Shown here in pieces: positions 1 through 34,004 of a stretch of DNA of 38,813 nucleotides. This DNA comes from a virus. The stretch is from UHGV virus genome UHGV-0123627. One strand, given 5' to 3'. The notes under the pieces are model-generated. The model was not told the DNA's origin. It searched no databases and worked only from the letters and a program-made list of their open reading frames with translations. Within the stretch, counting starts at the first letter, position 1; each line of letters begins with the position of its first letter. Both the position numbers and the translations under genes were made by a program.

Positions 1-49
1 TTATCAATTTGTTGCAACGAACAGGTCACTATCAGTCAAAATAAAATCA
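1..49. other. P' arm of lambda-type attachment site (prophage attL side) with Int arm-type sites
   Basis: Sequence directly downstream of the int stop contains CAGGTCACTAT, AGTCAAAAT and AATCATTAT-type motifs, matching the lambda attP P' arm as remembered. The core itself would lie just upstream of position 1. Confidence 0.6.
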
Positions 50-1120
50 TTATTTGATTTCAATTTTGTCCCACTCCCTGCCTCTGTCATCACGATACTG
101 TGATGCCATGGTGTCCGACTTATGCCCGAGAAGATGTTGAGCAAACTTATCGCTTATCTGCTTCTCATAGAGTCTTGCAGACAAACTGCGCAACTCGTGA
201 AAGGTAGGCGGATCCCCTTCGAAGGAAAGACCTGATGCTTTTCGTGCGCGCATAAAATACCTTGATACTGTGCCGGATGAAAGCGGTTCGCGACGAGTAG
301 ATGCAATTATGGTTTCTCCGCCAAGAATCTCTTTGCATTTATCAAGTGTTTCCTTCATTGATATTCCGAGAGCATCAACATGCAATGCTGTTGGGATGGC
401 AATTTTTACGCCTGTTTTGCTTTGCTCGACATAAAGATATCCATCTACGATATCAGACCACTTCATTTCGCATAAATCACCAACTCTCTGCCCGGTAACA
501 ACAGCCAGTTCCATTGCAAGTCTTAGCCAACATGGTGATGATTCTGCTGCTTGATAAATTTTCAGGTATTCGTCAGCCGTAAGCCTTGATCTCCTTACCT
601 CTGATTTTGCTGCGCGAGTGGCAGCGACCGGGTTTGTTGTTATATGGCCTTCAGCTATTGCCTCTCGGAATGCATCGCTCAGTGTTGATCTGATTAACTT
701 GGCTGATGCCGCCTTGCCCTCGTCTATGTATCCATTAAGCATTGCCGCAATTTCTTTTGTGGTGATGTCTTCAAGTGGAGCATCAGGCAGACCCCTCCTT
801 ATTGCTTTAATTTTGCTCATGTAATTTATGAGTGTCTTCTGCTTGATTCCTCTGCTGGCGAGTATTTTTTCGTAGCGATCAAGCCATGAATGTAGCGTAA
901 CAGAATTATCACTGTTGATTCTTGCTGTCAGAGGCTTGTGTTTGTGTCCTGAAAATAACTCAATGTTTGCCTGTATTGCTTCAGTAATTGCTATCCTCCT
1001 GTCTCTGCCTAATCCGAACTCTTTACCCGTCCTTGGGTCCCTGTAGCAGTAATATCCATTGTTTCTTATATAAAGGTTAGGGGGTAAATCCCGGCGCTCA
1101 TGACTTCGCCTTCTTCCCAT
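50..1120 (-). CDS. int: Tyrosine integrase, lambda Int
   Basis: 356-aa ORF; translation MGRRRSHERRDLPPNLYIRNNGYYCYRDPRTGKEF... matches lambda Int essentially end to end from memory. Confidence 0.97.
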   Translation of the reverse strand: MGRRRSHERRDLPPNLYIRNNGYYCYRDPRTGKEFGLGRDRRIAITEAIQANIELFSGHKHKPLTARINSDNSVTLHSWLDRYEKILASRGIKQKTLINYMSKIKAIRRGLPDAPLEDITTKEIAAMLNGYIDEGKAASAKLIRSTLSDAFREAIAEGHITTNPVAATRAAKSEVRRSRLTADEYLKIYQAAESSPCWLRLAMELAVVTGQRVGDLCEMKWSDIVDGYLYVEQSKTGVKIAIPTALHVDALGISMKETLDKCKEILGGETIIASTRREPLSSGTVSRYFMRARKASGLSFEGDPPTFHELRSLSARLYEKQISDKFAQHLLGHKSDTMASQYRDDRGREWDKIEIK

Positions 1121-1316
1121 TTCTGATCCTCTTCAAAAGGCTACCTGTTACTGGTCGATTTAAGTCAACCTTTACCGCTGATTCGTGGAACAGATACTCT
1201 CTTCCATCCTTAACCGGAGGAGGGAATATCTTGCACTCGCGTACCCATCGACGAACTGTTTCAAGGCTTCTTGGACGTCGCTGGCGTGCGTTCCACTCCT
1301 GAAGTGTCAAGTACAT
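1098..1316 (-). CDS. xis: Excisionase, lambda Xis
   Basis: 72-aa ORF MYLTLQEWNARQRRPRSLETVRRWVRECKIFPPPVKDGREYLFHESAVKVDLNRP...; overlaps the int start as in lambda. Confidence 0.95.
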   Translation of the reverse strand: MYLTLQEWNARQRRPRSLETVRRWVRECKIFPPPVKDGREYLFHESAVKVDLNRPVTGSLLKRIRNGKKAKS

Positions 1317-1340
1317 CGCAAAGTCTCCGCAATTACACGC

Positions 1341-1364
1341 AAGAAAAAACCGCCATCAGGCGGC
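1341..1364 (-). terminator. Candidate intrinsic terminator upstream of xis (tL3-like position)
   Basis: On the minus strand a GC hairpin GCCGCC-TGAT-GGCGG is followed by TTTTTTCTT. Confidence 0.45.
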
Positions 1365-1523
1365 TTGGTGTTCTTTCAGTTCTTCAATTCGAATATTGGT
1401 TACGTCTGCATGTGCTATCTGCGCCCATATCATCCAGTGGTCATAGCAGTCATTGATGTTCTCTGCTTCGATAACTCTGTTGAATGGTTCTCCATTCCAT
1501 TCACCTGTAACTCGGAAGTGCAT
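1356..1523 (-). CDS. Small hypothetical protein (55 aa)
   Basis: ATG preceded by GGAG at 7 nt; translation MHFRVTGEWNGEPFNRVIEAENINDCYDHWMIWAQIAHADVTNIRIEELKEHQAA; the stop lies in the loop of the terminator hairpin. Below the 60-aa cutoff of the ORF track. Confidence 0.35.
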   Translation of the reverse strand: MHFRVTGEWNGEPFNRVIEAENINDCYDHWMIWAQIAHADVTNIRIEELKEHQAA

Positions 1524-1595
1524 TTATCATCTCCATAAAACAAAACCCGCCGTAGCGAGTTCAGATAAAAGAAATCCCCGCGAATGCGAGGATTG

Positions 1596-1880
1596 TTATT
1601 CATTGCTGATATTCACCTTTATCGCGTATACCTTTACCGGTTTATCGCCGAAGTGGGGATGTGTGATTGTCTTGATTTCATATCCGTCATACGGGACATC
1701 AATTCTGCGACTGAAGTCGTCGCGCTTCGGATATCCCTTTGTGATAATCAGGCGGTCATACTCCCGGAACATAATTCGCTTATTCCAGTAGTCATTACAC
1801 AAGCGATACTCTTCCGTTTTCTCCCCGCGAATCATGGCGTCGAAGTATTCACCTTTAACGGCAAGTTGCAGGTTAGCCAC
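1596..1880 (-). CDS. Hypothetical protein, ASCH/DUF3850-like
   Basis: 94-aa ORF with GTG start and AGGAGG 6 nt upstream; motif pattern resembles small ASCH (PUA-like) phage proteins. Family assignment from memory only. Confidence 0.55.
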   Translation of the reverse strand: MANLQLAVKGEYFDAMIRGEKTEEYRLCNDYWNKRIMFREYDRLIITKGYPKRDDFSRRIDVPYDGYEIKTITHPHFGDKPVKVYAIKVNISNE

Positions 1881-2379
1881 GGTTTACCTCCTGCGGCGGT
1901 TCCGGTAGCGGTATCCAGTGGGTTACATTGCGGCTCTGCGTTTCGAAGAACTCCTCACCATTGCGGACAACATCAAAAAACTCACCGTCTCGATATTGCG
2001 CATAAAGAACGAATGCGCCATCACATAAAATAATTACGTGCTGACCGTCCTCTGGCATTCGCTCACTACAGCTTATCCAACCATCCGGAATTACCGGCGC
2101 TGACGGCGCTGCGTAAAGCGGTGTTATTTCTGCCCGAAAGTCACCTATTTCATGCAGTCGCACCCAGCGTTCGACTTCTGCTTTGTCAGAATACATAGTG
2201 GTGAACGTATTATATTCATTGTCAATTTGCGTGAAGGTTGCCGTCCACGCCACTGGCTCTGCTTCCAGTGATGCCAGTGCGATCTCATAAGCACGGCGTT
2301 CAATATTGTCTCGAACGTACAGGCTGCCGATGCGCTCTTTGATTTCTTTAATCAGTTCTTTGTCGGTGAACGTTGTCAT
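1873..2379 (-). CDS. DUF551-family phage protein
   Basis: 168-aa ORF; C-terminal region (...VTHWIPLPEPPQ) is typical of DUF551 prophage proteins; AAGGA before the ATG. Confidence 0.65.
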   Translation of the reverse strand: MTTFTDKELIKEIKERIGSLYVRDNIERRAYEIALASLEAEPVAWTATFTQIDNEYNTFTTMYSDKAEVERWVRLHEIGDFRAEITPLYAAPSAPVIPDGWISCSERMPEDGQHVIILCDGAFVLYAQYRDGEFFDVVRNGEEFFETQSRNVTHWIPLPEPPQEVNRG

Positions 2380-2389
2380 GTGTTAGTCC

Positions 2390-2653
2390 TTATCCTGCTG
2401 TGCTTTCAACTGATGAGGGGAACAAAATCTTTTCATCAAATCCGGCATTCATATCATGGACAGCAACACACCAATCCATCGACGAACGATTATCAAGAGC
2501 CTCCATGATTTCATCCATGCGGCGTAGGTCATACAGGTAAATGTTTTTATCACCAATGGTGTAAAAACCAATTTTTTTCGGTGATGGACAGCGATCAAGA
2601 ACGTCCTGTAATTCGTTCAACCATGCCTGTTCTTTTTTTGTCAACGTTGCCAT
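2390..2653 (-). CDS. Hypothetical protein (87 aa)
   Basis: Internal ATG of the 117-aa track ORF preceded by AAGGAAA; begins MATLTKKEQAWLNELQDVLDRC... Confidence 0.5.
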   Translation of the reverse strand: MATLTKKEQAWLNELQDVLDRCPSPKKIGFYTIGDKNIYLYDLRRMDEIMEALDNRSSMDWCVAVHDMNAGFDEKILFPSSVESTAG

Positions 2654-2654
2654 A

Positions 2655-2873
2655 TCAGTTTTCCTTATACGGATTAATTTTATTGTGCAGTGTGTTGAAC
2701 GACGCCCATACCACGTCGTTATACAATTCAATAACTGGCTCAATTATTTTCCCGATTGCCCAGACAAAAATTAGCGGGGATATCGGTATCATCAACACGA
2801 TAAACAGAATGAGAAACAGGAATTCTGTCGTTCTACTCTTTCGCGGATATTCTTTTCTGAATAATGTCGGCAC
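2655..2873 (-). CDS. Small predicted membrane protein (72 aa)
   Basis: GTG start with AGGAG 6-7 nt upstream, overlapping the ea22 stop; hydrophobic stretch FLFLILFIVLMIPISPLIFVWAIG. Confidence 0.45.
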   Translation of the reverse strand: MPTLFRKEYPRKSRTTEFLFLILFIVLMIPISPLIFVWAIGKIIEPVIELYNDVVWASFNTLHNKINPYKEN

Positions 2874-2874
2874 A

Positions 2875-3423
2875 TCACTCTCCTTTGATGCGAATGCCAG
2901 CGTCAGACATCATATGCAGATACTCACCTGCATCCTGAACCCATTGACCTCCAACCCCGTAATAGCGATGCGTAATGATGTCGATAGTTACTAACGGGTC
3001 TTGTTCGATTAACTGCCGCAGAAACTCTTCCTGGTCACCAGTGCAGTGCTTGATAACAGGAGTCTTCCCAGGATGGCGAACAACAAGAAACTGGTTTCCG
3101 TCTTCACGGACTTCGTTGCTTTCCAGTTTAGCAATACGCTTACTCCCATCCGAGATAACACCTTCGTAATACTCACGCTGCTCGTTGAGTTTTGATTTTG
3201 CTGTTTCAAGCTCAACACGCAGTTTCCCTACTGTTAGCGCAATATCCTCGTTCTCCTGGTCGCGGCGTTTGATGTATTGCTGGTTTCTTTCCCGTTCATC
3301 CAGCAGTTCCAGCACAATCGATGGTGTTACCAATTCATGGAAAAGGTCTGCGTCAAATCCCCAGTCGTCATGCATTGCCTGCTCTGCCGCTTCACGCAGT
3401 GCCTGAGAGTTAATTTCGCTCAC
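2875..3423 (-). CDS. ea22: Lambda Ea22-like protein
   Basis: 182-aa ORF, same length as lambda Ea22 and at the same position relative to exo. Confidence 0.8.
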   Translation of the reverse strand: MSEINSQALREAAEQAMHDDWGFDADLFHELVTPSIVLELLDERERNQQYIKRRDQENEDIALTVGKLRVELETAKSKLNEQREYYEGVISDGSKRIAKLESNEVREDGNQFLVVRHPGKTPVIKHCTGDQEEFLRQLIEQDPLVTIDIITHRYYGVGGQWVQDAGEYLHMMSDAGIRIKGE

Positions 3424-3641
3424 TTCGAACCTCTCTGTTTACTGATAAGTTCCAGATCCTCCTGGCAACTTGCACAAGTCCGACAACCCTGAACGGCCAA
3501 GCGTCTTCGTTCATCTATCGGATCGCCACACTCACAACAATGAGTGGCAGATATAGCCTGGTGGTTCAGGCGGCGCATTTTTATTGCTGTGTTGCGCTGT
3601 AATTCTTCAATTTCTGATGCTGAATCAATGATGTCTGCCAT
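3420..3641 (-). CDS. TraR/DksA-family C4 zinc-finger protein (lambda Orf73-like)
   Basis: 73-aa ORF with C-x2-C...C-x2-C (CCECGDPIDERRRLAVQGCRTCASC), typical of TraR-like phage proteins. Confidence 0.8.
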   Translation of the reverse strand: MADIIDSASEIEELQRNTAIKMRRLNHQAISATHCCECGDPIDERRRLAVQGCRTCASCQEDLELISKQRGSK

Positions 3642-3696
3642 CTTTCATTAATCCCTGAATTGTTGGTTAATACGCTTGAGGGTGAATGCGAATAAT

Positions 3697-3717
3697 AAAA
3701 AAGGAGCCTGTAGCTCC
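3697..3717 (-). terminator. Candidate intrinsic terminator (tL2-like position)
   Basis: Minus strand GGAGC-TACAG-GCTCC followed by TTTTTT. Confidence 0.4.
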
Positions 3718-3739
3718 CTGATGATTTTGCTTTTCATGT

Positions 3740-3955
3740 TTACCGTTCCTTAAAGACGCCGTTCAACATGCCGATCGCCAGGCTTAAATGAGTCGGTGTG
3801 AATCCCATCAGCGTTACCGTTTCGCGGTGCTTCTTCAGTACGCTACGGCAAGTGTCATCGACGTTTTTATCCGGAAACTGCTGTCTGGCTTTTTTGATTT
3901 CAGAATTAGCCTGACGGGCAATGCTGCGAAGGGCGTTTTCCTGCTGAGGTGTCAT
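3740..3955 (-). CDS. Hypothetical early-left operon protein (lambda orf63-like position)
   Basis: Track ORF 3740..4021; the internal ATG at 3955 gives the 71-aa MTPQQENALRSIARQANSEIKK... product. The start is uncertain; the 4021 alternative is not excluded. Confidence 0.5.
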   Translation of the reverse strand: MTPQQENALRSIARQANSEIKKARQQFPDKNVDDTCRSVLKKHRETVTLMGFTPTHLSLAIGMLNGVFKER

Positions 3956-4031
3956 TGAACAAGTCCCATGTCGGCAAGCATAAGCACACAGAATATGAAG
4001 CCCGCTGCCAGAAAAATGCATTCAGTGGTTG

Positions 4032-4223
4032 TCATACCTGGTCTCTCTCATCTGCTTCTGCTTTCGCCACCATCATTTCCAGCTTTTGTGAAAGGGATGT
4101 GGCTAACGTATGAAATTCTTCGTCTGTTTCTACTGGTATTGGCACAAACCTGACTCCAATTTGAGCAAGGCTATGTGCCATCTCAATACTCGTTCTTAAC
4201 TCAACAGGAGATGCTTTGTGCAT
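4032..4223 (-). CDS. Hypothetical early-left operon protein (lambda orf60a-like position)
   Basis: 63-aa ORF with GGGAGG 6 nt upstream of the ATG. Confidence 0.55.
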   Translation of the reverse strand: MHKASPVELRTSIEMAHSLAQIGVRFVPIPVETDEEFHTLATSLSQKLEMMVAKAEADERDQV

Positions 4224-4374
4224 ACCGCCTCCCGTTTATTATTTATCTTCTCAGCCAGCCGCTGTGCTTTCAGTGGATTTCTGATAACAGAAAGGCCGGG
4301 AAATACCCAGCCTCGCTTTGTAACGGAGTAGACGAAAGTGATCGCGCCTACCCGGATATTATCGTGAGGATGCG

Positions 4375-5055
4375 TCATCGCCATTGCTCCCCAAATACAA
4401 AACCAATTTCAGCCAGTGCCTCGTCCATTTTTTCGATGAACTCCGGCACCATCTCGTCAAAACTCGCCATGTACTTTTCATTCCGCTCAATCACGACATA
4501 ATGCAGGCCTTCACGCTTCATGCGCGGGTCATAGTTGGCAAAGTACCAGGCATCTTTTCGCGTCACCCACATGCTGTACTGCACCTGGGCCATGTAAGCC
4601 GACTTTATGGCCTCGAAACCACCGAGCCGGAATTTCATGAAATCCCGGGAGGTAAACGGGCATTTCAGCTCAAGGCCATTGCCGTCACTGCATAAACCAT
4701 CGGGAGAGCAGGCGGTGCGCATACTTTCGTCGCGATAGATGATCGGGGATTCAATAACATTTACGCCGGAAGTGAACTCAAACAGGGTTCTGGCGTCGTT
4801 CTCGTACTGTTTTCCCCAGGCCAGCGCTTTAGCGTTAACTTCCGGAGCCACACCGGTGCAAACCTCAGCTAGCAGGGTGTGGAAGTAGGACATTTTCATG
4901 TCAGGCCACTTCTTTCCTGATCGGGGCTTTGCTATCACGTTGTGAACTTCTGAAGCGGTGATGACGCCGAGCCGTAATTTGTGCCATGCATCATCCCCCT
5001 GTTCGACAGCTCTCACGTCGATCCCGGTACGCTGCAGGATAATGTCCGGTGTCAT
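4375..5055 (-). CDS. exo: Lambda exonuclease (Red-alpha)
   Basis: 226-aa [68 protein letters not shown]... matches lambda Exo. Confidence 0.97.
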
Positions 5056-5837
5056 GCTGCCACCTTCTGCTCAGTGGCTTTCTGTTTCAGGAATCCAAGA
5101 GCTTTCACTGCTTCGGCCTGTGTCAGTTCTGACGATGCGCGAATGTCGCGGCGAAATATCTGGGAACAGAGCGGCAATAAGTCGTCATCCCATGTTTTAT
5201 CCAGGGCGATCAGCAGAGTGTTAATCTCCTGCATGGTTTCATCGTTAACCGGAGTGATATCGCGTTCCGGCTGACGTTCTGCAGTGTATGCAGTATTTTC
5301 GACAATGCGCTCGGCTTCATCCTTGTCATAGATACCAGCAAATCCGAAGGCCAGACGGGCACACTGAATCATGGCTTTATGCCGTAACATCCGTTTGGGA
5401 TGCGACTGCCACGGTCCGGTGATTTCTCTGCCTTCGCGGGTTTTGAATGGTTCGCGGCGGCATTCATCCATCCACTCGGTAACGCAGATCGGATGATTAC
5501 GGTCCTTGCGGTAAATCCGGCATGTGCAGGATTCATTGTCCTGCTCAAAGTCCATGCCATCAAACTGCTGGTTTTCATTGATGATGCGGGACCAGCCATC
5601 AACGCCCACCACCGGAACGATGCCGTTCTGCTTATCAGGGAAGGCGTAAATTTCTTTCGTCCACGGATTAAGGCCGTACTGGTTGGCGACGATCAACAAT
5701 GCGATGAACTGCGCATCGCTGGCATCACCTTTAAATGCCGTCTGGCGAAGAGTGGTGATCAGTTCCTGTGGGTCGACAGAATCCATGCCGACTCGTTCAG
5801 CCAGCTTCCCAGCCAGCGTTGCGAGTGCTGTACTCAT
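5052..5837 (-). CDS. bet: Lambda Bet single-strand annealing protein (Red-beta)
   Basis: 261-aa [69 protein letters not shown]... matches lambda Bet. Confidence 0.97.
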
Positions 5838-5842
5838 CCGTT

Positions 5843-6259
5843 TTATACCTCTGAATCAATATCAACCTGGTGGTGAGCAATGGTTTCAACCATGTACTGG
5901 ATGTGTTCTGCCATGCGCTCCTGAAACTCAACATCGTCATCAAACGCACGGGTAATGGCTTTTTTGCTGGCCCCGTGGCGTTGCAAATGATCGATGCATA
6001 GCGATTCAAACAGGTGCTGGGGCAGGCCTTTTTCCATGTCGTCTGCCAGTTCTGCCTCTTTCTCTTCTCGGGCGATCTGCTGGTAGTGACGCGCCCAGCT
6101 CTGAGCCTCAAGACGATCCTGAATGTAATAAGCGTTCATGGCTGAACTCCTGAAATAGCTGTGAAAATATCGCCCGCGAAATGCCGGGCTGATTAGGAAA
6201 ACAGGAAAGGGGGTTAGTGAATGCTTTTGCTTGATCTCAGTTTCAGTATTAATATCCAT
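5843..6259 (-). CDS. gam: Lambda Gam (RecBCD inhibitor)
   Basis: 138-aa [64 protein letters not shown]... matches lambda Gam (long form). Confidence 0.95.
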
Positions 6260-6357
6260 TTTTTATAAGCGTCGACGGCCTCACGAAACATCTTTTCATC
6301 GCCAATAAAAGTGGCGATAGTGAATTTAGTCTGGATAGCCATAAGTGTTTGATCCAT
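6214..6357 (-). CDS. kil: Kil (host killing / FtsZ inhibitor)
   Basis: Internal ATG of the 89-aa track ORF gives the 47-aa [47 protein letters not shown], matching lambda Kil; overlaps gam and cIII as in lambda. Confidence 0.8.
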
Positions 6358-6490
6358 TTTTTGGGACTCCTGGCTGATTAAGTATGTCGATAAGGCGTTT
6401 CCATCCGTCACGTAATTTACGGGTGATTCGTTCAAGTAAAGATTCGGAAGGGCAGCCAGCAACAGGCCACCCTGCAATGGCATATTGCAT
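6326..6490 (-). CDS. cIII: cIII (FtsH inhibitor, stabilises CII)
   Basis: Manual translation gives the 54-aa [54 protein letters not shown], matching lambda CIII. Below the ORF-track size cutoff. Confidence 0.85.
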   Translation of the reverse strand: MQYAIAGWPVAGCPSESLLERITRKLRDGWKRLIDILNQPGVPKNGSNTYGYPD

Positions 6491-6562
6491 GGTGTGCTCC
6501 TTATTTATACATAACGAAAAACGCCTCGAGTGAAGCGTTATTGGTATGCGGTAACGCCGCGC

Positions 6563-6931
6563 TCAGGCGGCTTTGATAGTCATATCATCTGAATCAAATA
6601 TTCCTGATGTATCGATATCGGTAATTCTTATTCCTTCGCTACCATCCATTGGAGGCCATCCTTCCTGACCATTTCCATCATTCCAGTCGAACTCACACAC
6701 AACACCATATGCATTTAAGTCGCTTGAAATTGCTATAAGCAGAGCATGTTGCGCCAGCATGATTAATACAGCATTTAATACAGAGCCGTGTTTATTGAGT
6801 CGGTATTCAGAGTCTGACCAGAAATTATTAATCTGGTGAAGTTTTTCCTCTGTCATTACGTCATGGTCGATTTCAATTTCTATTGATGCTTTCCAGTCGT
6901 AATCAATGATGTATTTTTTGATGTTTGACAT
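6563..6931 (-). CDS. ea10: Lambda Ea10-like protein
   Basis: 122-aa ORF MSNIKKYIIDYDWKASIEIEIDHDVMTEEKLHQINNFW... at the lambda ea10 position and length. Confidence 0.85.
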   Translation of the reverse strand: MSNIKKYIIDYDWKASIEIEIDHDVMTEEKLHQINNFWSDSEYRLNKHGSVLNAVLIMLAQHALLIAISSDLNAYGVVCEFDWNDGNGQEGWPPMDGSEGIRITDIDTSGIFDSDDMTIKAA

Positions 6932-7134
6932 CTGTTCATATCCTCACAGATAAAAAATCGCCCTCACACTGGAGGGCAAAGAAGATTTCCAATAATCAGA
7001 ACAAGTCGACTCCTGTTTAGTTACGAGCGACATTGCTCCGTGTATTCACTCGTTGGAATGAATACACAGTGCAGTGTTTATTCTGTTATTTATGCCAAAA
7101 ATAAAGGCCACTATCAGGCAGCTTTGTTGTTCTG

Positions 7135-7314
7135 TTAACCAAGTTCTCTGGCAATCATTGCCGTCGTTCGTATTGCCCATTTATCGACATATTTCCCATC
7201 TTCCATTACAGGAAACATTTCTTCAGGCTTAACCATGCATTCCGATTGCAGCTTGCATCCATTGCATCGCTTGAATTGTCCACACCATTGATTTTTATCA
7301 ATAGTCGTAGTCAT
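7135..7314 (-). CDS. ral: Ral (restriction alleviation), C-terminally truncated by an ochre codon at position 60
   Basis: Translation MTTTIDKNQWCGQFKRCNGCKLQSECMVKPEEMFPVMEDGKYVDKWAIRTTAMIARELG then TAA. The in-frame continuation CAG AAC AAC AAA GCT GCC TGA encodes QNNKAA, the C-terminus of 66-aa lambda Ral as remembered. No ORF of 60 aa or more appears in the track here, consistent with truncation. Confidence 0.7.
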   Translation of the reverse strand: MTTTIDKNQWCGQFKRCNGCKLQSECMVKPEEMFPVMEDGKYVDKWAIRTTAMIARELG

Positions 7315-7384
7315 ACGGATAGTCCTGGTATTGTTCCATCACATCCTGAGGATGCTCTTCGAACTCTTCAAATTCTTCTTCCAT
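7298..7384 (-). CDS. Small ORF (28 aa), lambda orf28-like
   Basis: ATG with GAGGTGA upstream; acidic peptide MEEEFEEFEEHPQDVMEQYQDYPYDYDY; overlaps the ral start. Confidence 0.4.
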   Translation of the reverse strand: MEEEFEEFEEHPQDVMEQYQDYPYDYDY

Positions 7385-7438
7385 ATATCACCTCAAATAA
7401 GTTGTTTGCTGCGAAAGTAAATACGCTTAAGTTACCTG

Positions 7439-14679: not shown

Positions 14680-15328
14680 TGGCAGCAAATACCGAAATAT
14701 TTGGGTAGTTGGCGATCTGCACGGATGCTACACGAACCTGATGAAAAAACTGGAGACGATGGGATTCGACACCAAAAAAGACCTGCTTATCTCGGTTGGC
14801 GATTTGGTCGATCGCGGTACAGAGAACGTCGAATGTCTGGAATTAATCACATTCCCCTGGTTCCGAGCTGTACGTGGAAACCATGAGCAAATGATGATTG
14901 ATGGCTTATCAGAGCGTGGAAACGTCAATCACTGGCTGTTTAATGGCGGTGGCTGGTTCTTTAATCTCGATTACGACAAAGAAATTCTGGCTAAAGCTCT
15001 TGCCCATAAAGCAGATGAACTTCCGTTAATCATCGAACTGGTGAGCGAAGGTAAAAAATATGTCATCTGCCACGCCGATTATCCTTGTGACGAATACGAA
15101 TTTGGAAAGCCAGTTGATCATCAGCAGGTAATCTGGAACCGCGAACGAATCAGCAACTCACAAGACGGGATCGTGAAAGAAATCAAAGGAGCTGACACGT
15201 TCATCTTTGGTCATACGCCAGCAGTGAAACCACTCAAGTTTGCCAACCAGATGTATATCGATACCGGCGCAGTGTTCTGCGGAAACCTCACATTGATTCA
15301 GGTACAGGGAGAAGGCGCGTGGGCATAA
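14657..15328 (+). CDS. ninI: NinI Ser/Thr protein phosphatase
   Basis: [29 protein letters not shown]...GNHE... metallophosphatase motifs; matches the lambda phosphatase. Confidence 0.9.
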
Positions 15329-15837
15329 GAGAACTAAACCTCACCAAAGAGCAGCACGAGTGGCTGAATGGCTGGCTTGAACTGTGGGGCGCATGGGTTT
15401 ATTCAGGTCGTCTGGAAAAGCGCATGAGCAGCGTAATAGCGAAGTTCATGGAGAGCGTAGAGCCGGGAAGAGTTATGACAAGGCCAATGTGCAATGATGA
15501 TGATGGAATGTTGATTTCTCAGGTCGTCGATTCCGTCATGTACATTGACAAAAAAGCCTTTGGCATCCTCCTCAGCTACTACGCTCATGGTTCATCTAAG
15601 CGAGCAATTGCATCCTACTATCACGCGACTGCAAAGCCACGCAAGATGTGTGGACGTGGTGGCGAGGGATGGAGAAAACCTTCACTGGCAACCTGTAGAA
15701 ACGAAATTGACGACATCCTGAAAGCGTCATTATTTGTTTTGTACCAACCAATGCAAAATGCTTTCAAAATGCGTAAACGTGTTGAGAAAGTTAAGCATGT
15801 TGCTGTTAAAAACCTTGACATGCAATTAGCCATTTAG
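15319..15837 (+). CDS. Late-gene antiterminator Q (non-lambda, QuuD/phage 82-like family)
   Basis: 172-aa ORF directly after ninI; the ...[12 protein letters not shown]... and ...[14 protein letters not shown]...YYAHG... segments resemble the ERWGAW / CDDD motifs of QuuD-type Q proteins as remembered. Not lambda Q. Confidence 0.65.
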
Positions 15838-15900: not shown

Positions 15901-15975
15901 GGGTCAGTCGTATAAAGGTCATTACGGAAGGCTGTTAACCTTCTTATCGTGGTTCGAGTCCACGCTGTCCCGCCA
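15901..15975 (+). tRNA. tRNA-like gene, anticodon GTT (Asn) by manual fold
   Basis: Hand-folded cloverleaf: T-arm CGTGG-TTCGAGT-CCACG, anticodon arm GAAGG-CTGTTAA-CCTTC, 3' end GCCA; the acceptor stem has one T-T mismatch and the D stem is 3 bp. Confidence 0.5.
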
Positions 15976-15980
15976 AATAT

Positions 15981-16056
15981 GCTGGTTTAGCTCCAATGGT
16001 AGAGCAGTCGCCTTGTAAGCGAATGGGTAGCGGTTCAAGTCCGTTAACCAGCACCA
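15981..16056 (+). tRNA. tRNA gene, anticodon TGT (Thr) by manual fold
   Basis: Perfect 7-bp acceptor stem GCTGGTT/AACCAGC, D-arm GCTC/GAGC, T-loop TTCAAGT, encoded CCA end; anticodon loop CTTGTAA. Confidence 0.7.
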
Positions 16057-27358: not shown

Positions 27359-28206
27359 TGGCGGATTCGAATCTCAATGTGCCGGTAATCATTCAGGCTA
27401 CACGGCTAGACACATCAGTCCTTCCACGCAATATCTTCTCGCAGTCGTATCTGCTTTACGTTATCGCACAGGGCACTGATGTTGGTAACGTGGCTAACAA
27501 AGCCAACGAGGCCGGACAGGGCGCTTATGATGCACAGGTCAGGAACGATGAGCAGGATGTGATTCTCGCTGACCATGAGCAGCGAATTTCTGCTGCGGAA
27601 GCAACGCTTGTTAATCATGAGGAGCGAATCAGCCAGGCAGAATCAACTCTTCAGGACCATGAAACACGAATAGCTCAGAATGAAAGCGATATTTCGTCGC
27701 TTGACACAAGAGTTCAGTCGCTGGAGTCGCAGGTTTCAGACCATGAAACGCGCATCGATGCTCTGGAGTATGCCACTACTCGCAAGAAGTCGGAGGTTGT
27801 TTACTCTGGCGTATCTGTAACCATCCCGACAGCGCCGACCAACCTTGTTAGCCTACTGAAAACGCTCACGCCGTCATCCGGCACGTTGGCACCATTCTTC
27901 GACACCGTTAACAACAAGATGGTTGTGTTCAACGAGAACAAAACCTTGTTCTTCAAGCTGTCGATCGTCGGGACGTGGCCCAGCGGAACCGCAAACAGGT
28001 CAATGCAGCTAACCTTTTCCGGCTCTGTTCCTGACACACTGGTCAGCAGTCGTAATGCGGCGACAACAACCGACAACATCCTGTTAGCTACGTTCTTCAG
28101 CGTGGATAAAGACGGCTTTCTTGCCACAAATGGCAGTACGTTAACCATTCAGTCAAATGGTGCGGCGTTTACTGCCACAACCATCAAGATAATCGCGGAG
28201 CAGTAA
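27358..28206 (+). CDS. Tail needle (P22 gp26 / Sf6-type with C-terminal knob)
   Basis: 282-aa; heptad-repeat coiled-coil region ([40 protein letters not shown]...) followed by a globular C-terminal domain. Confidence 0.8.
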
Positions 28207-28661
28207 TGATTCAGTTCAAACCAACGCGAAACATCGACCTGATCGAAGCAGTCGGAAATCACCCTGACATTATTGCCGGGAGCAACAACGGTGATGGATA
28301 CGACTATAAACATGATTGCCGTTACTTTGAGGTGAACGTGCACGGGCAGTTCGGCGGCATTGTTTACTATCAGGAGATTCAGCCGCTGACATTCGATTGC
28401 CACGCCATGTACCTGCCAGAGGTTCGTGGATTCAGCAAGGAAATCGGGCTGGCGTTCTGGCGATACATTCTGACTAACACCACCGTTCAGTGCGTAACAT
28501 CGTTCGCTGCACGCAAATTCCGCCACGGTCAGATGTACTGCGCAATGATTGGCCTTAAGCGTGTAGGAACCATCAAGAAATACTTCAAAGGCGTGGATGA
28601 CGTGACTTTTTACAGCGCCACACGCGAAGAACTAATCGACTTCCTGAATCACGGGAGATAG
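28206..28661 (+). CDS. Virion assembly protein (P22 gp14 position)
   Basis: 151-aa ORF; assigned by gene order only. Confidence 0.5.
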   Translation: MIQFKPTRNIDLIEAVGNHPDIIAGSNNGDGYDYKHDCRYFEVNVHGQFGGIVYYQEIQPLTFDCHAMYLPEVRGFSKEIGLAFWRYILTNTTVQCVTSFAARKFRHGQMYCAMIGLKRVGTIKKYFKGVDDVTFYSATREELIDFLNHGR

Positions 28662-28663
28662 CC

Positions 28664-29356
28664 ATGTTATATGCATTTAAGCTGGGCAGAAAACTGCGCG
28701 GCGAGGAACCTTATTGCCCTGAAAAGGGGGGGAAAGGTGGCAGTTCTGATAAAAGCGCAAAGTATGCCGCAGAAGCTCAGAAGTATGCAGCAGACCTGCA
28801 AAATCAGCAGTGGCAGACGATCATGAAAAACCTTGCTCCGTTCACGCCGCTTGCGGAGCAGTATGTTAACCAGCTTCAGAATCTTTCCAGTTTAGAAGGT
28901 CAGGGGCAGGCACTTAATCAGTATTACAATTCTCAGCAGTATAAAGACCTTGCAGGTCAGGCTCGTTACCAGAGTCTTGCTGCTGCGGAAGCGACTGGAG
29001 GACTTGGTTCGACAGCCACAAGCAATCAACTGGCTACGATCGCGCCGACACTCGGTCAGTCTTGGTTATCAAACCAGATGAGCAATTACAACAATCTGGC
29101 AAACGTTGGGCTTGGTGCGCTGCAAGGTCAGGCAAACGCCGGGCAGACGTACGCCAACAACATGAGCAGCATTGCACAGCAAAGCGCAGCACTTGCCGCT
29201 GCTAATGCCAATAAACCATCAAGTCTTCAGACTGCAATTAGCGGTGGCACGTCTGGTGCGATTGCCGGTGCAGGTCTTGCCAGCCTTTTGGGAACATCAA
29301 CGCCTTGGGGCGCTGGCATTGGTGCTGGTATCGGATTGCTTGGCTCGTTGTTTTAA
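28664..29356 (+). CDS. Ejection/internal protein (P22 gp7 position)
   Basis: 230-aa Gln/Ala/Gly-rich low-complexity protein. Confidence 0.7.
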   Translation: MLYAFKLGRKLRGEEPYCPEKGGKGGSSDKSAKYAAEAQKYAADLQNQQWQTIMKNLAPFTPLAEQYVNQLQNLSSLEGQGQALNQYYNSQQYKDLAGQARYQSLAAAEATGGLGSTATSNQLATIAPTLGQSWLSNQMSNYNNLANVGLGALQGQANAGQTYANNMSSIAQQSAALAAANANKPSSLQTAISGGTSGAIAGAGLASLLGTSTPWGAGIGAGIGLLGSLF

Positions 29357-29365
29357 GGGGTAATC

Positions 29366-30697
29366 ATGGCTACTTGGCAAGGAACAAACGGCGGATTGTT
29401 GGCTGGTATCGGCGGCGTCAACTCAAACGCTCCGAGCGTAAATGACATCGGCAATACGCTTCAGCTTATCAGGCAGAACAATGATATTGAGCGTTCAGGC
29501 GCTAACAATGTTGGGCTGACTGCTTTGCAAGGTCTTTCAGGTATTGCGGGTGTTTTTCAGCAGGAAAAGCAGGCTCAGCGGCAGAAAGAATTTCAGCAGG
29601 CGTACGCTAATGCTTATGCGTCTGGTGATCGCGGTGCTTTGCGTCAGTTGGCTACTCAATATCCAGACCAGATTGAATCCGTTCGTAAAGGCATGGGATT
29701 CATTGATGAAGAGCAGCGTAATTCTATCGGCACCTTAGCGGCTGGCGCACGCCTTGCGTCATCGTCTCCAGAAGCAATGCAATCATGGCTGCAAAACAAC
29801 GCCGGTGAGTTAGCTCGTGTTGGCGTTAATCCTCATGACGTCGCTCAGATGTACCAACAGAACCCGCGGCAGTTCGGCGAATTTGTCGATCACCTGGGGA
29901 TGAACAGTCTCGGGCCCGAAAAATACTTTGACCTACAGGATAAAATGCAGGGTCGCCAGGTTACCATGCGCGGTCAGGATCTGGATTCGCAAACCGCCGC
30001 TCGGAATCAGGCAATCACAATGCGCGGACAAGATATCCAGGCGAATTTAGGTCAGCAGCGCATTAATCTGGACGCAGAAACAAACCGCATTAACAACGAA
30101 AATAAGCGCCTTGACCGGATGCTATCAGCAGAAACTAACGACCTGAAGCGCCAGGAAATACAGAGCCGCATAGCAGCCAACAACCAGCAGTTGCAGCAGA
30201 AGCAGCAAGCGCTAAATGATGGCTACAAAGACGGCATCAACACCCTCACAACCAGCATGTTCACTCTGAACGATATCGTTAGTTCTCCTTCACTTAAGAG
30301 CATTACAGGCTTACGTGGAGTAATCCCCAACGTTCCAGGCTCACAGGCTGCAGACACTCAGGCACGACTTGATACCTTTAAATCCCAAGCATACCTGACA
30401 GCGGTTCAGGCCATGCGAGGCATGGGCGCACTTTCTGATGCCGAGGGCAAAAAGCTCGACCAGGCTGTTGGTTCGCTGCAGAACTCACAGAGCGAGGAGT
30501 CCTTTCGTCGCAACGCTGGCGTCATCCTGAACACGCTCAACCAGAAGCGTAATGAGGCGGTTGGTAAGTACGTTCAGCAAAACGGTATCAAGCGAGTGGA
30601 AGCGCCTCAGGCTTCTATAGATTACCTGAAGCAGCACCCCGAGCTGTCAATCGACTTCATTAATCGCTACGGATATCTTCCATCTTTGGGGCAGTAA
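29366..30697 (+). CDS. Ejection/internal protein (P22 gp20 position)
   Basis: 443-aa Gln-rich protein; assigned by gene order. Confidence 0.7.
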   Translation: MATWQGTNGGLLAGIGGVNSNAPSVNDIGNTLQLIRQNNDIERSGANNVGLTALQGLSGIAGVFQQEKQAQRQKEFQQAYANAYASGDRGALRQLATQYPDQIESVRKGMGFIDEEQRNSIGTLAAGARLASSSPEAMQSWLQNNAGELARVGVNPHDVAQMYQQNPRQFGEFVDHLGMNSLGPEKYFDLQDKMQGRQVTMRGQDLDSQTAARNQAITMRGQDIQANLGQQRINLDAETNRINNENKRLDRMLSAETNDLKRQEIQSRIAANNQQLQQKQQALNDGYKDGINTLTTSMFTLNDIVSSPSLKSITGLRGVIPNVPGSQAADTQARLDTFKSQAYLTAVQAMRGMGALSDAEGKKLDQAVGSLQNSQSEESFRRNAGVILNTLNQKRNEAVGKYVQQNGIKRVEAPQASIDYLKQHPELSIDFINRYGYLPSLGQ

Positions 30698-33091
30698 ATG
30701 GCTAATTACCGTGATTTGTTAGAGCAGGCTGGCGCACGTTACGGTGTGCCAGAAGGGTTGATGACTGCACTGGGTGCCAAGGAGTCTTCTTACAACCCTG
30801 CCGCAGTAAGCTCCGCCGGGGCTGTAGGATTGACTCAGGTCATGCCTGGGACATGGCGTGATATGGGTTATACCGATGAGCAAATGCAAAACCCCGAATA
30901 TCAGGCTGACGCTGGCGCGCGCTATCTGGCAAAGATGTACCAGCAGTTTGGTAACTGGCGTGACGCTCTTCAGGCTTATCACGACGGTCCCGGCAACGTT
31001 ATGAAGGCAAAGCGTGGTGAATATACGCCAGGACCTGAAGGCCGCGGTTACGTTGATGATCGCTTTGCTCAATGGGCTGGTGACCCGGTGACAGACTCAA
31101 CAGTCGAACAGCGCGCCACCTCTGCAAAGGTACATCCTCAGCAAGACCCTAACAACCCGTTTGCACAACTGGAAGTACAGTCATCCGAACAAGTATCGGC
31201 ATCAGGTGTGCAGTCAGACCCAAATAATCCATTTGCTCAGATTGAGCAGCAGGCAGCCAGTCAGCAGCCACCTCAACCCGTAAGTTCTGTCGCACCGAAA
31301 CCTGTTCAGCAGCAAGGCGGAATAATGTCTGACCTTGGTAATGGACTTGCTGAAACCGGGCGCGGCTTACTACAGGCAGGAATCAACGTAGCGAACATAC
31401 CTGCTGAACTCACTGATGCTGTAACAAGCGCGGCGGCTTGGGCTGGCGGTAAACTCGGCATTGGCGATGGTACATATCAACCAGCGCCACGAGTAACAAC
31501 GCAGGGATTAGAGCAGGACTTTGGCCTTCAGCAAGGCGCGCTGACTCCACAAACGACAGAGGGAAGGGTATTTGCTGAAGCATTGCCTTACCTCACTCCT
31601 GCTGGCATTGAGAGAGCGGCAACACAGGCACCAACACTCGCTGGTAGAATCGCTCAGGGTGCAACTCGCCTTCTCGCTGAAAACGCAGTCGGGTCACTTG
31701 CTGCAAATAGTGCGAAAGATGATGCGGAAGCACTCGCTACCGATTTAGGTGTTGGCGTTCTGGCTGGCGGCGCTATTAACGCTGCCGGACGTGGATTAGG
31801 TGCTGCTTATCGTGGTGTTCGTGGTTCGATAGCACCAGAAGCGCAGCAGGCTATCAGATTTGCAGAGCGTGAAGGAGTTCCTCTGCACACCACAGACCTG
31901 TTACAACCAACCTCCCGCATCGGAAAAATGGCGCAGACTACAGCAGAAAATATCCCTCTGGCTGGCACAAGCGGAATGAGAGCAACGCAACAGGAAGCGA
32001 GAAGCCAGTTGGTGCAGAGATTTGCCGATAAATTCGGTGAGTATGATCCAGCGGTTGTTATTGACAGCCTTAAAGCGAAAACATCAGGAATTCGTCGTGC
32101 CGCCGGTAATCGACTGGAGCAGGTTCAGAATGCTATGGCTGGAGTAAACATTCAGCCTGCGCGAGCAATTCAGCAGATTGATACAGAAATATCTAACCTG
32201 CAGAAGCTTGGTAAGGTTGCTGATAACGAGACAATTTCAAAACTTCAGTCATATCGTGATGAGCTTGTTCGCAATGCTGGCCCTGATGGCCCGGTAAATC
32301 TGGATTTGAAGCAATTAAGCGATCTGCGCAGCCAGTTCAGAATGGACGTGAAGGGTGAGCGACCAGTGTTACCAAACCGTTCCGATGCCGCCATACAGCG
32401 CGTTTACAAGGCGATGACCGACGATATCAATGGTGCCATTGGTCAGAATCTTGGCAATGATACTCTTCGTAAATATCAGCAGGCCAATTCCGTCTACGCT
32501 GACGAAGCGGCGAAACTAAAGAATACCAGGCTGAAGAATGTTCTCATGAAAGGCGACCTGACGCCGGAAGTTGTCAACAACATGCTATTCAGCAAGAACA
32601 AATCTGAAATTAAGACGCTGTATAACTCAGTTGGTCGTGTTGGCAGGGCGCAAATGCGCAATGGCATCATTGGAAAGGCGATGGAGAAATCTGGCGGATC
32701 CCCTGACCAGTTCCTTCGGCAGCTTAACATCCTGCAAAACCAGACTGGCATCACATTTAAGGGGCAGGATGCTGATTATCTGAAAGGATTGAAAAATTAC
32801 CTTCAGTCCACTCAGCAGGCAGCAAAAGCGGCAGTAACAACACCAACAGGGCAGCAAACCATCCCGTTCATTATCGGGTATGGGACGGCAATGAACCCGG
32901 CGACAACTGGCGCAGCGGTAAGCTACGGACTTCTTACTCGCGCCTATGAGAGCGAACCATTCAGAAATGCAATGCTCCGAATGGCAAACACCCCACGCGG
33001 ATCGACAGCGTTTGAGAAAGCCATGCAGCAAGCGCAAAAAGCGATTAATGCACTGACGCAGGGTGCGAAGTCTGATTCGTTATCAGAATAG
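30698..33091 (+). CDS. Ejection/internal protein (P22 gp16 position) with N-terminal lytic transglycosylase domain
   Basis: 797-aa; N-terminal about 130 aa carry an SLT-like motif (AKESSYNPAAVSSAGAVGLTQVMPGTW ... AYHDGPGN); the remainder is Ala/Gly/Gln-rich. Confidence 0.75.
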   Translation: MANYRDLLEQAGARYGVPEGLMTALGAKESSYNPAAVSSAGAVGLTQVMPGTWRDMGYTDEQMQNPEYQADAGARYLAKMYQQFGNWRDALQAYHDGPGNVMKAKRGEYTPGPEGRGYVDDRFAQWAGDPVTDSTVEQRATSAKVHPQQDPNNPFAQLEVQSSEQVSASGVQSDPNNPFAQIEQQAASQQPPQPVSSVAPKPVQQQGGIMSDLGNGLAETGRGLLQAGINVANIPAELTDAVTSAAAWAGGKLGIGDGTYQPAPRVTTQGLEQDFGLQQGALTPQTTEGRVFAEALPYLTPAGIERAATQAPTLAGRIAQGATRLLAENAVGSLAANSAKDDAEALATDLGVGVLAGGAINAAGRGLGAAYRGVRGSIAPEAQQAIRFAEREGVPLHTTDLLQPTSRIGKMAQTTAENIPLAGTSGMRATQQEARSQLVQRFADKFGEYDPAVVIDSLKAKTSGIRRAAGNRLEQVQNAMAGVNIQPARAIQQIDTEISNLQKLGKVADNETISKLQSYRDELVRNAGPDGPVNLDLKQLSDLRSQFRMDVKGERPVLPNRSDAAIQRVYKAMTDDINGAIGQNLGNDTLRKYQQANSVYADEAAKLKNTRLKNVLMKGDLTPEVVNNMLFSKNKSEIKTLYNSVGRVGRAQMRNGIIGKAMEKSGGSPDQFLRQLNILQNQTGITFKGQDADYLKGLKNYLQSTQQAAKAAVTTPTGQQTIPFIIGYGTAMNPATTGAAVSYGLLTRAYESEPFRNAMLRMANTPRGSTAFEKAMQQAQKAINALTQGAKSDSLSE

Positions 33092-33181
33092 CCTTTCAAA
33101 CACCAGGAACGTGCAAAAACCAAATATGTAGAACGCGAGGTTTATCGTATCCCTCTGCATAGGCGATACCTTTGCTGATTG

Positions 33182-33667: not shown

Positions 33668-33737
33668 ATGGTTAACTCTCCTTAGTTTTTCACAGGATAT
33701 CATGAAGGCAATGCCATTTTAGCCGGAAACTAGATTT

Positions 33738-34004
33738 CTATGTTTCCTTTTTATTATTGCTATACATGGTCTTAAGCGTTTCAAAAACCATTTTCTTAAC
33801 CATATCAGATTGTTGCTCTGCCATACGCTCTGCATCGTCAATGTAAACGGATGCAGAGCTTTGTTTAGCCAATGATTCTTCAATCGCTGCAATTATCTCT
33901 GAGTTCAGCGATCTGTTATTCATCTTCGCACGCTGTTTAATTTTCGCGTGGAGTTCATGCGGAAGTCTCAAGTGAAACTGCGCCTCGTCGTATTTGCTGT
34001 ACAT
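33738..34004 (-). CDS. mnt: Mnt-like ribbon-helix-helix repressor
   Basis: ...SLNSEIIAAIEESLAKQSSASVYIDDAERMAEQQSDMVKKMVFETLKTMY... parallels P22 Mnt (RSMNSELLQIVQDAL...NDAERLADEQSELVKKMVFDTLKDLYKK) as remembered. Confidence 0.8.
   Translation of the reverse strand: MYSKYDEAQFHLRLPHELHAKIKQRAKMNNRSLNSEIIAAIEESLAKQSSASVYIDDAERMAEQQSDMVKKMVFETLKTMYSNNKKET

Follow-up and report, generated by a model that had tools for sequence, protein, structure and literature searches.

What has taken the place of ea8.5 in an otherwise lambda-like early operon, and what might it do for the phage? The question is raised by virus genome UHGV-0123627, analysed here over a window of 38,813 nucleotides (the whole stretch of DNA available). 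In blastn comparisons, positions 1-1599 of the window correspond to lambda (NC_001416) 27763-29361 at 97.8% identity and positions 2875-6500 to lambda 29847-33473 at 98.2% identity; the right-hand match reaches position 7409, with 2875-7409 being ~98% identical. Since lambda matches lie on both sides, the intervening 1,275 bp (1600-2874, coding on the minus strand and delimited by the blastn breakpoints) replace the 485 bp of lambda 29362-29846, which comprise ea8.5 (lambda 29374-29655) plus spacer. The replacement of ea8.5 by a four-gene block, proposed in an earlier sequence-only reading of this DNA, is thus borne out. The left breakpoint coincides with the stop codon of the last cassette gene (gene A, 1596-1598), and the right one with the stop codon of ea22 (2875-2877).

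The surroundings are those of the exo-xis, or 'ea', accessory region of lambdoid phages. Upstream lies a lambda-type ea22 gene (2875-3423, minus strand, 182 aa; PF13935, 101 bits; 98% identical to lambda), followed by an orf73-like DksA/TraR gene (3420-3641), and exo, orf60a, orf63, orf61 and ea22 all fall in flanks 98% identical to lambda. Of the two flanks named in the sequence-only reading, ea22 is correct, but the other is not xis directly: a lambda-type orf55 gene (1356-1523, minus strand, 55 aa; phrog_676, E 7e-40) comes first and xis after it. The cassette thus sits between exo and xis, downstream of the orf60a-orf63-orf61-orf73-ea22 block. We interpret it as a recombinational cassette of this region swapped exactly between two stop codons, an interpretation that belongs to an overall explanation to which we give an even chance.

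Four minus-strand open reading frames with good ribosome-binding sites are packed closely into the cassette, read in the order D, C, B and A, and their earlier description as a membrane protein, an 87-aa protein, a DUF551 protein and an ASCH protein was essentially right. The strong SD sequences reported for them are AGGAG, AAGGA, AAGGA and AGGAGG, respectively. The genes had also been called tightly packed and overlapping; the packing is real, but the only true overlap is that of B with A, the ea22-D, D-C, C-B and B-A junctions measuring 1, 1, 10 and -8 nt. All four genes are under purifying selection. Because the median dN/dS against other alleles is 0.05-0.26 over the four (0.15 for D and 0.05-0.07 for A and C), they are real genes and not chance open reading frames.

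Gene D (2655-2873, minus strand, 72 aa) starts with GTG 1 nt past the ea22 stop codon. It belongs to the DUF4014 family, matching PF13198 over its full length (89.8 bits, E 1.5e-25, cut-off 23.2), and it also matches phrog_1832. The protein has one transmembrane helix at about residues 17-41 (top 19-residue Kyte-Doolittle window 2.96) and, as its N-terminus is basic (5 K/R), it is predicted to lie N-in. The DUF4014 gene follows ead/ea22 in epsilon15 and 933W as well, and is found two genes after it in g341c. An old annotation of the homologue epsilon15 gp46, quoted in the c341 record, calls it an 'acetyltransferase inhibitor', a label absent from the current RefSeq epsilon15 record. Neither for this label nor for the phrase 'released from the phage upon host infection' could an experimental basis in DUF4014 proteins be traced in the literature, and both are treated here as unsupported.

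Gene C (2390-2653, minus strand, ATG start) encodes an acidic (pI 4.7) alpha/beta protein of 87 aa that falls in no Pfam family. It matches phrog_1714 (E 7e-51), and RCPSPxKxGFYT and FPSxVESTAG are conserved motifs of the family. When HMMER was run exhaustively with this family to look for fusions to a known domain, a few longer proteins came up, none with a Pfam domain. A homologue with 72% identity is present in a virulent Chivirus, and virulent Chi-like phages have C on its own; this speaks against a role restricted to lysogeny.

Gene B (1873-2379, minus strand, ATG start) encodes an acidic, EaA-like protein of 168 aa (pI 4.6) with an N-terminal half (residues 1-95) and a C-terminal DUF551 domain; residues 100-163 span the whole 68-position model of PF04448 (76 bits, E 4e-21, cut-off 22). 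B is itself recombinant, with a junction near window positions 2028-2105: its N-terminal half is 100% identical to the allele of plasmid pAPEC201603, and its DUF551 half is 97% identical to the allele of a chromosomal prophage in the same strain. Indeed, alleles of the DUF551 protein are highly mosaic (>7,772 clusters, among them many singletons), and their alignment contains conserved junction peptides on both sides of the variable segments. Phage JD01 has a decayed DUF551 open reading frame.

Gene A (1596-1880, minus strand) encodes a basic protein of 94 aa (pI 8.6). Its GTG start codon lies inside the end of B, and its SD sequence (AGGAGGT) lies within the codons for the conserved PPQEV of B. 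A matches phrog_625 (E 2e-50); its match to the Pfam ASCH model PF04266 (14.4 bits, residues 6-28 only) stays below the cut-off of 21.2, and a PDB profile search with the A family found no ASCH chain. The fold is nevertheless the PUA-like beta-barrel of about 100-110 residues that defines the ASCH superfamily. The octapeptide of that superfamily, G-x-K-x-x-[ETS]-x-R (PMC9599836), is present as G19-E-K21-T-E-E24-Y-R26, with G19, K21, E24 and R26 invariant in 40 homologues. The octapeptide and the PUA-like fold are common to A and the ASCH structures 3iuw, 2z0t, YqfB and ZmASCH, although there is no significant sequence similarity to any of these, and with 94 aa A stands at the small end of the family. 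Two more specific assignments fail. The DUF3850-like character attributed to A in the sequence-only reading has to be dropped, as no such Pfam match appears at E <= 0.1. The N4-acetylcytidine amidohydrolase YqfB has the catalytic residues Lys21, Thr24 and Glu74 (PMC9599836); A keeps Lys21 but has Glu24 at the position of the nucleophile Thr24, and hhalign of the A family against YqfB gives a probability of 0.1%.

In searches against Pfam, PHROGs, NCBIfam and PADLOC, none of the four fell into a family of virion, replication or known defence proteins: NCBIfam returned nothing usable, and the PADLOC models gave only a chance-level match to JetA (E 0.018, 11.7 bits). Sequences in PDB gave no more than chance matches, whether the query was one of the proteins or a profile of the A or B family. 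Virion or replication roles, which would have spoken against the view of the block as accessory cargo, are rejected because family support is absent and the position is wrong; a defence system or a toxin-antitoxin pair is likewise rejected, no model being matched.

The closest known arrangement is in Stx phage 933W, whose genes L0064-L0067 (ST933Wp04-p07) occupy the same position between ea22 and xis in the exo-xis region and show the same family order of DUF4014, a small gene, a DUF551 protein and ASCH. The earlier placement of the block at a variable cargo position of the pL operon is upheld. The 933W homologues of A and D are 95% and 94% identical to the proteins here; however, its gene between DUF4014 and DUF551 is not homologous to C, its DUF551 protein is only 40% identical overall to B, and its ea22 differs at the C-terminus and is followed by an additional gene. 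Lambda, whose operon is otherwise 98% identical, has one gene in this slot between ea22 and orf55 instead of four unrelated ones, with no sequence similarity between them; going by the title of Kwan et al. 2013 (cited in PMC10834534), Ea8.5 has a hybrid homeodomain/zinc-finger fold. Further afield, epsilon15 and g341c have Ead/Ea22, DUF4014 and an EaA-like or DUF551 gene in the same order (gp46 and gp47 being the latter two in epsilon15), interrupted in g341c by an HNH gene, while Salmonella phage P6 has DUF4014 then EaA with no detectable ead/ea22. The P22-like and epsilon15 homologues of D are about 51% identical to it. Unlike here, the epsilon15 'ea' genes lie downstream of replication genes and not in a pL-type operon, and no homologue of C or ASCH was seen in epsilon15. 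Finally, the DUF551 domain of B is shared by YfdS, from an accessory gene cluster of the E. coli prophage CPS-53 (PMC4776307), although the neighbours of yfdS are different (yfdQ, yfdR and yfdT); H2O2 sensitivity is among the phenotypes reported for YfdS.

The DNA of the cassette is mobile. At >=98% identity, contiguous pieces of it turn up in four or more further backbones of phages or phage-plasmids: one of the Rad52/SSB/Abc2 type (L326), one with another integrase type (L323), one with replication genes on one side of it and terminase on the other (L329), and a plasmid that also bears phd/doc (L003). L326 and L323 share the segment corresponding to window positions 1344-2671/3197, and orf55 travels with C-B-A in other backbones. 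The suggestion that the four genes travel as a unit is nonetheless not upheld by a broader sample. Among 4 x 80 IMG/VR loci, all four families were found within 2.5 kb in 0/22, 0/54, 1/48 and 1/43 cases, that is, together in only about 1% of the sampled loci. Recent spread, and not selection for linkage, could explain why the block is nearly identical from one backbone to the next. In the same sample, C was downstream of D at 30 of 61 loci and a DUF551 gene was upstream of ASCH at 49 of 77. The block is best described, within the evenly balanced explanation introduced above, as three separable units, namely D, C and the B+A pair. Independent scattering among phages with unrelated known functions had been named as grounds for doubting a cargo block; homologues of C and A do occur separately in virulent phages.

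The steadiest link in the block is that of DUF551 with ASCH. In the virulent Jerseyvirus ER1, an ASCH gene overlaps by 4 nt with the DUF551 gene (69 aa) that follows it, the reverse of the order in the cassette, and 95 phage records, most of them from virulent Jersey-like Salmonella phages, contain this ASCH-then-DUF551 pair with a coverage of >=80%. ASCH homologues with no DUF551 neighbour were seen in one Klebsiella phage and one Ralstonia P2-like phage.

When would these genes be expressed? A simple consensus scan of the minus strand between positions 1000 and 4200 found no sigma-70-like site, a negative that is no proof against prophage expression. As no promoter of their own was found, pL is probably the promoter of the four genes, which would then be delayed-early and most likely part of the N-antiterminated transcript; their start and stop signals adjoin closely or overlap. 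On this view, the proteins would be made during infection or after induction, and not in the quiescent lysogen; this timing is deduced from position and from the lack of a promoter-like site. Two terminator-like hairpins lie just past gene A (1543-1594, minus strand; consensus scan, pattern match only) in lambda-shared DNA, and so did not arrive with the insert. A moron is an autonomous promoter-gene-terminator insert; with no promoter-like site on the coding strand and the hairpins in lambda-shared DNA, the cassette is not one. [quoted passage not shown]

Our best guess is that the block supplies non-essential early factors acting on the host during lytic growth. The acidic EaA-like DUF551 protein B would be translationally coupled to the basic ASCH protein A. 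Acting jointly with the DUF551 domain of B, A would take up RNA or a modified nucleotide in its conserved GxKxxExR pocket and might also process it; the small N-in protein D would act at the inner membrane. Taken as a whole, this explanation, a pL-read cassette of three separable units encoding early host-directed factors, is one that we consider to have equal chances of being right or wrong. None of the four proteins can be linked to a target by homology to a characterised factor.

The strongest competitor, tentative at about half that strength, is that the block includes at least one early inhibitor of a host immune system, comparable to ral and gam; the acidic B and C, or B together with A, would be the likeliest candidates. 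The operon is common to ral, gam and kil, the block adjoins the anti-RecBCD gene abc2 in other backbones, B and C are small and acidic, homologues of A and C occur in strictly virulent phages, and the mosaicism of DUF551 alleles is extreme. However, A and C are under strong purifying selection (dN/dS 0.05-0.07), which is unlike an arms race, and searches of Pfam, PHROGs, NCBIfam, PDB and BFVD found no similarity to a characterised anti-defence protein. Further, the four sequences were not found in the searched portions of the supplementary files of an accessory-gene screen (PMC12373910), where only DUF551 annotations in genome tables came up.

Somewhat less probable is a role in tuning the developmental decision or prophage induction in the manner of Ea22, orf61 and orf63. 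The block directly follows ea22 in the exo-xis region, genes of which are reported to shift lysogenisation and induction (PMC3824215, PMC7093339, PMC8614690). The Ea22_V2 variant ends in a DUF551 domain, and L0065 of 933W has been described as the detached C-terminal part of phi24B Ea22 (PMC10834534, PMC8614690). In addition, the DUF551 protein YfdS, when over-supplied, contributes to inhibiting DnaA-dependent initiation (PMC4776307). Against such a role, A (with a DUF551 partner) and C are found in virulent Jerseyvirus and Chivirus, which have no lysogeny decision.

Expression from the prophage, with D altering the envelope or blocking superinfection of the lysogen, is improbable. In its favour, D spans the membrane once, O-antigen alteration by small phage proteins has precedents (PMC12373910), and there is the old label of epsilon15 gp46; but that label, now gone from RefSeq, has no traceable experimental basis, the coding strand has no promoter-like site, and D is translationally packed behind ea22 in the repressed pL operon. 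That the block is functionless DNA, decaying remnants carried along by recombination, is largely refuted by the selection data and very improbable: despite the mosaic structure, the junction inside B and the decayed open reading frame of JD01, all four reading frames are intact with SD sequences, dN/dS is low over many alleles, and the families are conserved across genera.

Taken alone, the block adds little, being one more combination of alleles in a region already described as variable, made up of gene families already on record from hundreds of phage genomes. It does offer a clean, base-resolved case of exchange at stop codons, with 1.3-1.9 kb of the same DNA in at least four other backbones and one recombination joint inside a gene. 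The one new lead is that ASCH and DUF551 genes are neighbours even in unrelated virulent phages. A bolder reading, which we think doubtful, is that the two form a conserved phage module, adjacent and coupled in either order in temperate lambdoid and virulent Jersey-like phages, that would target either a host RNA or a pathway of modified nucleotides and might represent a new type of counter-defence or translation-takeover factor, with the hypervariable DUF551 core setting target specificity. Regardless, the pairing in temperate and virulent phages provides a handle on two widespread families annotated without function, and it argues that these exo-xis genes serve lytic growth and not lysogeny.

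In the blastn comparison with lambda, window positions 1-1599 correspond to lambda 27763-29361 (97.8%) and positions 2875-7409 to lambda 29847-34381 (98.3%). The 1,275 bp between them (1600-2874) have no lambda counterpart and displace the 485 bp of lambda 29362-29846, which hold ea8.5 together with the spacer that precedes ea22; the sequence-only reading, which had ea8.5 replaced between lambda-like flanks, is thereby borne out. Both breakpoints fall on stop codons, on the left that of A (1596-1598), the inserted gene transcribed last, and on the right that of ea22 (2875-2877); the segment is a cassette swap at gene boundaries.

The lambda-like stretch carries, all on the minus strand, int (50-1120), xis (1098-1316), orf55 (1356-1523), ea22 (2875-3423), an orf73-like DksA/TraR C4 zinc-finger gene (3420-3641), orf61, orf63, orf60a, exo, bet, gam, kil and cIII. 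The orf73-like gene and the start of ea22 share 4 nt; NC_001416 annotates no CDS in the corresponding lambda DNA. An Rfam lambda cIII thermoregulator element (6445-6503, minus strand, 88.5 bits) is expected in lambda-type DNA. The whole window is a lambda hybrid with continuous likeness only over 1-7409 (int to ral); further on, lambda matches are short patches (portions of N, of cro-cII and of the nin region), and none was found past ~17.2 kb, so that the late genes are not those of lambda. A 172-aa ORF (15319-15837) starts where lambda similarity stops, at the start of lambda Q, and is taken from its position to be a non-lambda Q-like gene. Just downstream of it, before the lysis region, lie tRNA-Asn(GTT) and tRNA-Thr(TGT) (15901-16056, plus strand), at a position where lambda has no tRNAs.

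The cassette comprises four minus-strand genes, in transcription order D (2655-2873; GTG start, 72 aa, SD AGGAG), C (2390-2653; ATG, 87 aa, SD AAGGA), B (1873-2379; ATG, 168 aa, SD AAGGA) and A (1596-1880; GTG, 94 aa, SD AGGAGG). A longer, TTG-start version of C (117 aa) was discarded because the homologues have 87 aa. Single nucleotides separate ea22 from D and D from C, 10 nt separate C from B, and B overlaps A by 8 nt; the earlier description of four packed, overlapping genes with SD sequences thus stands for packing, strand and SD, with true overlap confined to the B/A pair. D matches PF13198 DUF4014 (E 1.5e-25) and phrog_1832, C matches phrog_1714 (E 7e-51) and no Pfam family, B matches PF04448 DUF551 over residues 100-163 (E 4e-21) and phrog_60, and A matches phrog_625 (E 2e-50). 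All four families are already in Pfam or PHROGs and annotated in many genomes. Against distinct alleles from related loci, median dN/dS is 0.07 for A, 0.05 for C and 0.15 for D, and within B it is 0.16 for the DUF551 half and 0.26 for the N-terminal half. None of the region's antisense ORFs has comparable family or selection support, and the four minus-strand ORFs are real genes. The G+C content of D and C is 39-41%, compared with 46.6% for the whole window.

A consensus scan of the coding strand between 1000 and 4200 found no sigma-70-like site, and it placed two terminator-like hairpins directly after A, one from 1594 to 1573 and one from 1562 to 1543. The DNA that holds them is shared with lambda, and hence they were not brought in with the insert; with no promoter-like site of its own either, a moron-type insert was rejected. 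A third terminator-like hairpin (1347-1366, minus strand; AAGCCGCCTGATGGCGGTTT then TTTTCTTG) overlaps the end of orf55, ahead of xis, also in lambda-shared DNA. [quoted passage not shown] At the translational level, PPQEV, the nearly invariant C-terminus of DUF551 proteins, is encoded by CCGCCGCAGGAGGTA (1873-1900, minus strand), with a perfect AGGAGGT 5 nt ahead of A's GTG; the B codons CAG GAG GTA (PQEV) hold this ribosome-binding site. The 3' end of B would act as coding sequence and translation signal of A at once, and we infer that this double duty may explain part of the PPQEV conservation.

Whether D, C, B and A travel together depends on scale, the answer for near-identical DNA differing from that for the wider families. 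The exact B protein occurs in 116 blocks of the assembly collection, and the window's prophage (99.5% over 7 kb) is already present in public assemblies, adjoining a pectinesterase gene in four loci (L325, L327, L328 and L330); this gene is presumably ybhC, at the lambda attachment site. At ≥98% identity, pieces of the block recur in quite different backbones. Locus L323 shares window 1344-3197 (orf55, A, B, C, D and the end of ea22) beside other recombination genes and another integrase, L326 shares 1344-2671 (orf55, A, B and C, without D and ea22) in a Rad52/SSB/Abc2-type backbone, and in L329 the shared stretch 1609-3424, from A to ea22, is flanked by lambda-P-type replication genes on one side and a small terminase gene on the other. 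The ea22-D-C-B-A run of L329 (3956-5771, GCA_022983675.1) is 98.7% identical to the window and occupies a different operon position. The 93.8-kb plasmid pAPEC201603 (L003 2501-4472, NZ_CP127300.1), which carries phd/doc and an S24 peptidase, has 1,286 bp in common with window 2028-3313 at 98.9% identity (half of B, C, D and most of ea22, including the lambda-type ea22 C-terminal domain), which indicates that integrated lambdoid prophages and extrachromosomal phage-plasmids exchange DNA. A chromosomal prophage of the same strain (L002) holds two separate pieces, window 1336-2105 and 2629-3315. As the plasmid piece begins at 2028 and the first prophage piece runs to 2105, B is itself a recombinant, with a joint just ahead of the DUF551 domain. 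Window 1300-3500 is covered to 80% by none of the complete E. coli genomes and phage records. C was also seen at 95-98% identity on short contigs (L332, L333 and L340) binned with gut anaerobes (MAG labels Segatella copri and Collinsella sp.); these contigs are most likely E. coli phage DNA placed in the wrong bin.

For the wider families, IMG/VR loci were sampled in four sets of 80, each set anchored on a different one of the four genes. The families of A, B, C and D lay jointly within 2.5 kb in 0/22, 0/54, 1/48 and 1/43 of the loci with enough flank (A, B, C and D anchors), fractions that are rough because the samples are the 80 closest matches per anchor and redundant; the suggestion that the four genes might travel as a unit is not upheld. 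From the same best 80 per anchor, a DUF551 gene was upstream of ASCH in 49 of 77 loci, and downstream of D were C in 30 of 61 and a DUF551 gene in 28 of 61. The order is D, an unrelated small gene, DUF551 and ASCH in phage 933W; Ead, DUF4014 and DUF551 in epsilon15; and Ead, an HNH gene, DUF4014 and a truncated EaA in g341c. In P6, EaA comes after DUF4014, and DUF551 was detected only in the gene that follows EaA. An EaA-like gene follows C in 4/6 distant genera. The re-assorting families and the variable gene set already described after ea22 (PMC8614690) agree with the proposed variable cargo position.

A is basic (pI 8.6) and contains the ASCH octapeptide G-x-K-x-x-[ETS]-x-R (PMC9599836) as G19-E-K21-T-E-E24-Y-R26, with G19, K21, E24 and R26 invariant in 40 homologues. 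The top structural matches to its AlphaFold model (pLDDT 83.6) are ASCH structures, followed by EVE and YTH domains. Sequence methods do not connect A to the ASCH family: Pfam ASCH scored 14.4 bits, below the cut-off of 21.2, and a PDB profile search with the A family and hhalign of that family against YqfB were negative. A YqfB-type amidohydrolase was rejected for A, since the YqfB nucleophile Thr24 is replaced by Glu. Among the initial protein descriptions, the membrane protein, the 87-aa protein, DUF551 and the ASCH fold held, and DUF3850 gave no match to A. The acidic B (pI 4.6) comes from a very large family (>7,772 clusters), whose alignment has short, nearly invariant peptides (IALASLEAEPVAW, PDGWISCSERMP and VTHWMPLPEPPQE) flanking highly variable segments, the DUF551 core among them. 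DUF551 is also the C-terminal domain of the Ea22_V2 variant, and 933W L0065 is described as the detached C-terminal part of phi24B Ea22 (PMC10834534, PMC8614690).

Virulent Jersey-like Salmonella phages (Guernseyvirinae) carry homologues of A with ~75% identity. One of them, ER1, encodes a stand-alone 69-aa DUF551 protein (PF04448, E 1e-17) whose gene comes after the ASCH gene and overlaps it by 4 nt; this ASCH-then-DUF551 pair is present, at 80% length coverage or more, in 95 phage records. Although the order is reversed relative to the window, adjacency and coupling are retained, which points to ASCH and DUF551 being functional partners. The pairing is not found everywhere: in one Klebsiella phage and one P2-like phage of Ralstonia, no DUF551 gene neighbours the ASCH homologue. 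In Salmonella phage JD01 (L343 2770-2980, MW715619.1), the unannotated DUF551 ORF after the ASCH gene has two in-frame stop codons, through either decay of the copy or a sequencing error; the ORF of the related ER1 is intact. Virulent Chi-like phages carry C at 72% identity, surrounded by nucleotide-metabolism genes and with none of D, B and A. With such homologues of A and C retained by phages that never lysogenise, service to lysogeny alone is unlikely.

We give about an even chance to the block being ordinary exo-xis accessory cargo of three separable units, D, C and B+A, which would be expressed early from pL and whose products would act on the host during lytic growth, A binding or processing RNA or a modified nucleotide jointly with the DUF551 domain. 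An anti-defence role, which fits the location, the mosaicism and the occurrence in virulent phages, is without homology support and rather unlikely. Somewhat more doubtful is an Ea22-like part in the lysis-lysogeny decision, suited to the position and the DUF551-Ea22 link but weakened by the virulent-phage homologues.

D has a single strongly hydrophobic stretch (best 19-residue window from residue 19, Kyte-Doolittle 2.96) and five K/R residues at its N-terminus, and is thus predicted to span the inner membrane once, in N-in orientation, with ~30 residues lying outside it. Its family is small (197 clusters at 50% identity among 1.84 billion representatives), restricted to Enterobacterales and their phages, and made up almost entirely of stand-alone proteins of 80-90 aa. 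PHROGs labels it 'released from the phage upon host infection' and the homologue epsilon15 gp46 bore the old label 'acetyltransferase inhibitor'; no experiment behind either label was traced in database records and literature. That D is expressed from the prophage for conversion or exclusion is improbable, no promoter having been found. Junk DNA is scarcely credible, being contradicted by the selection data. The block is of value mainly for the ASCH-DUF551 pairing and for its clean recombination anatomy.
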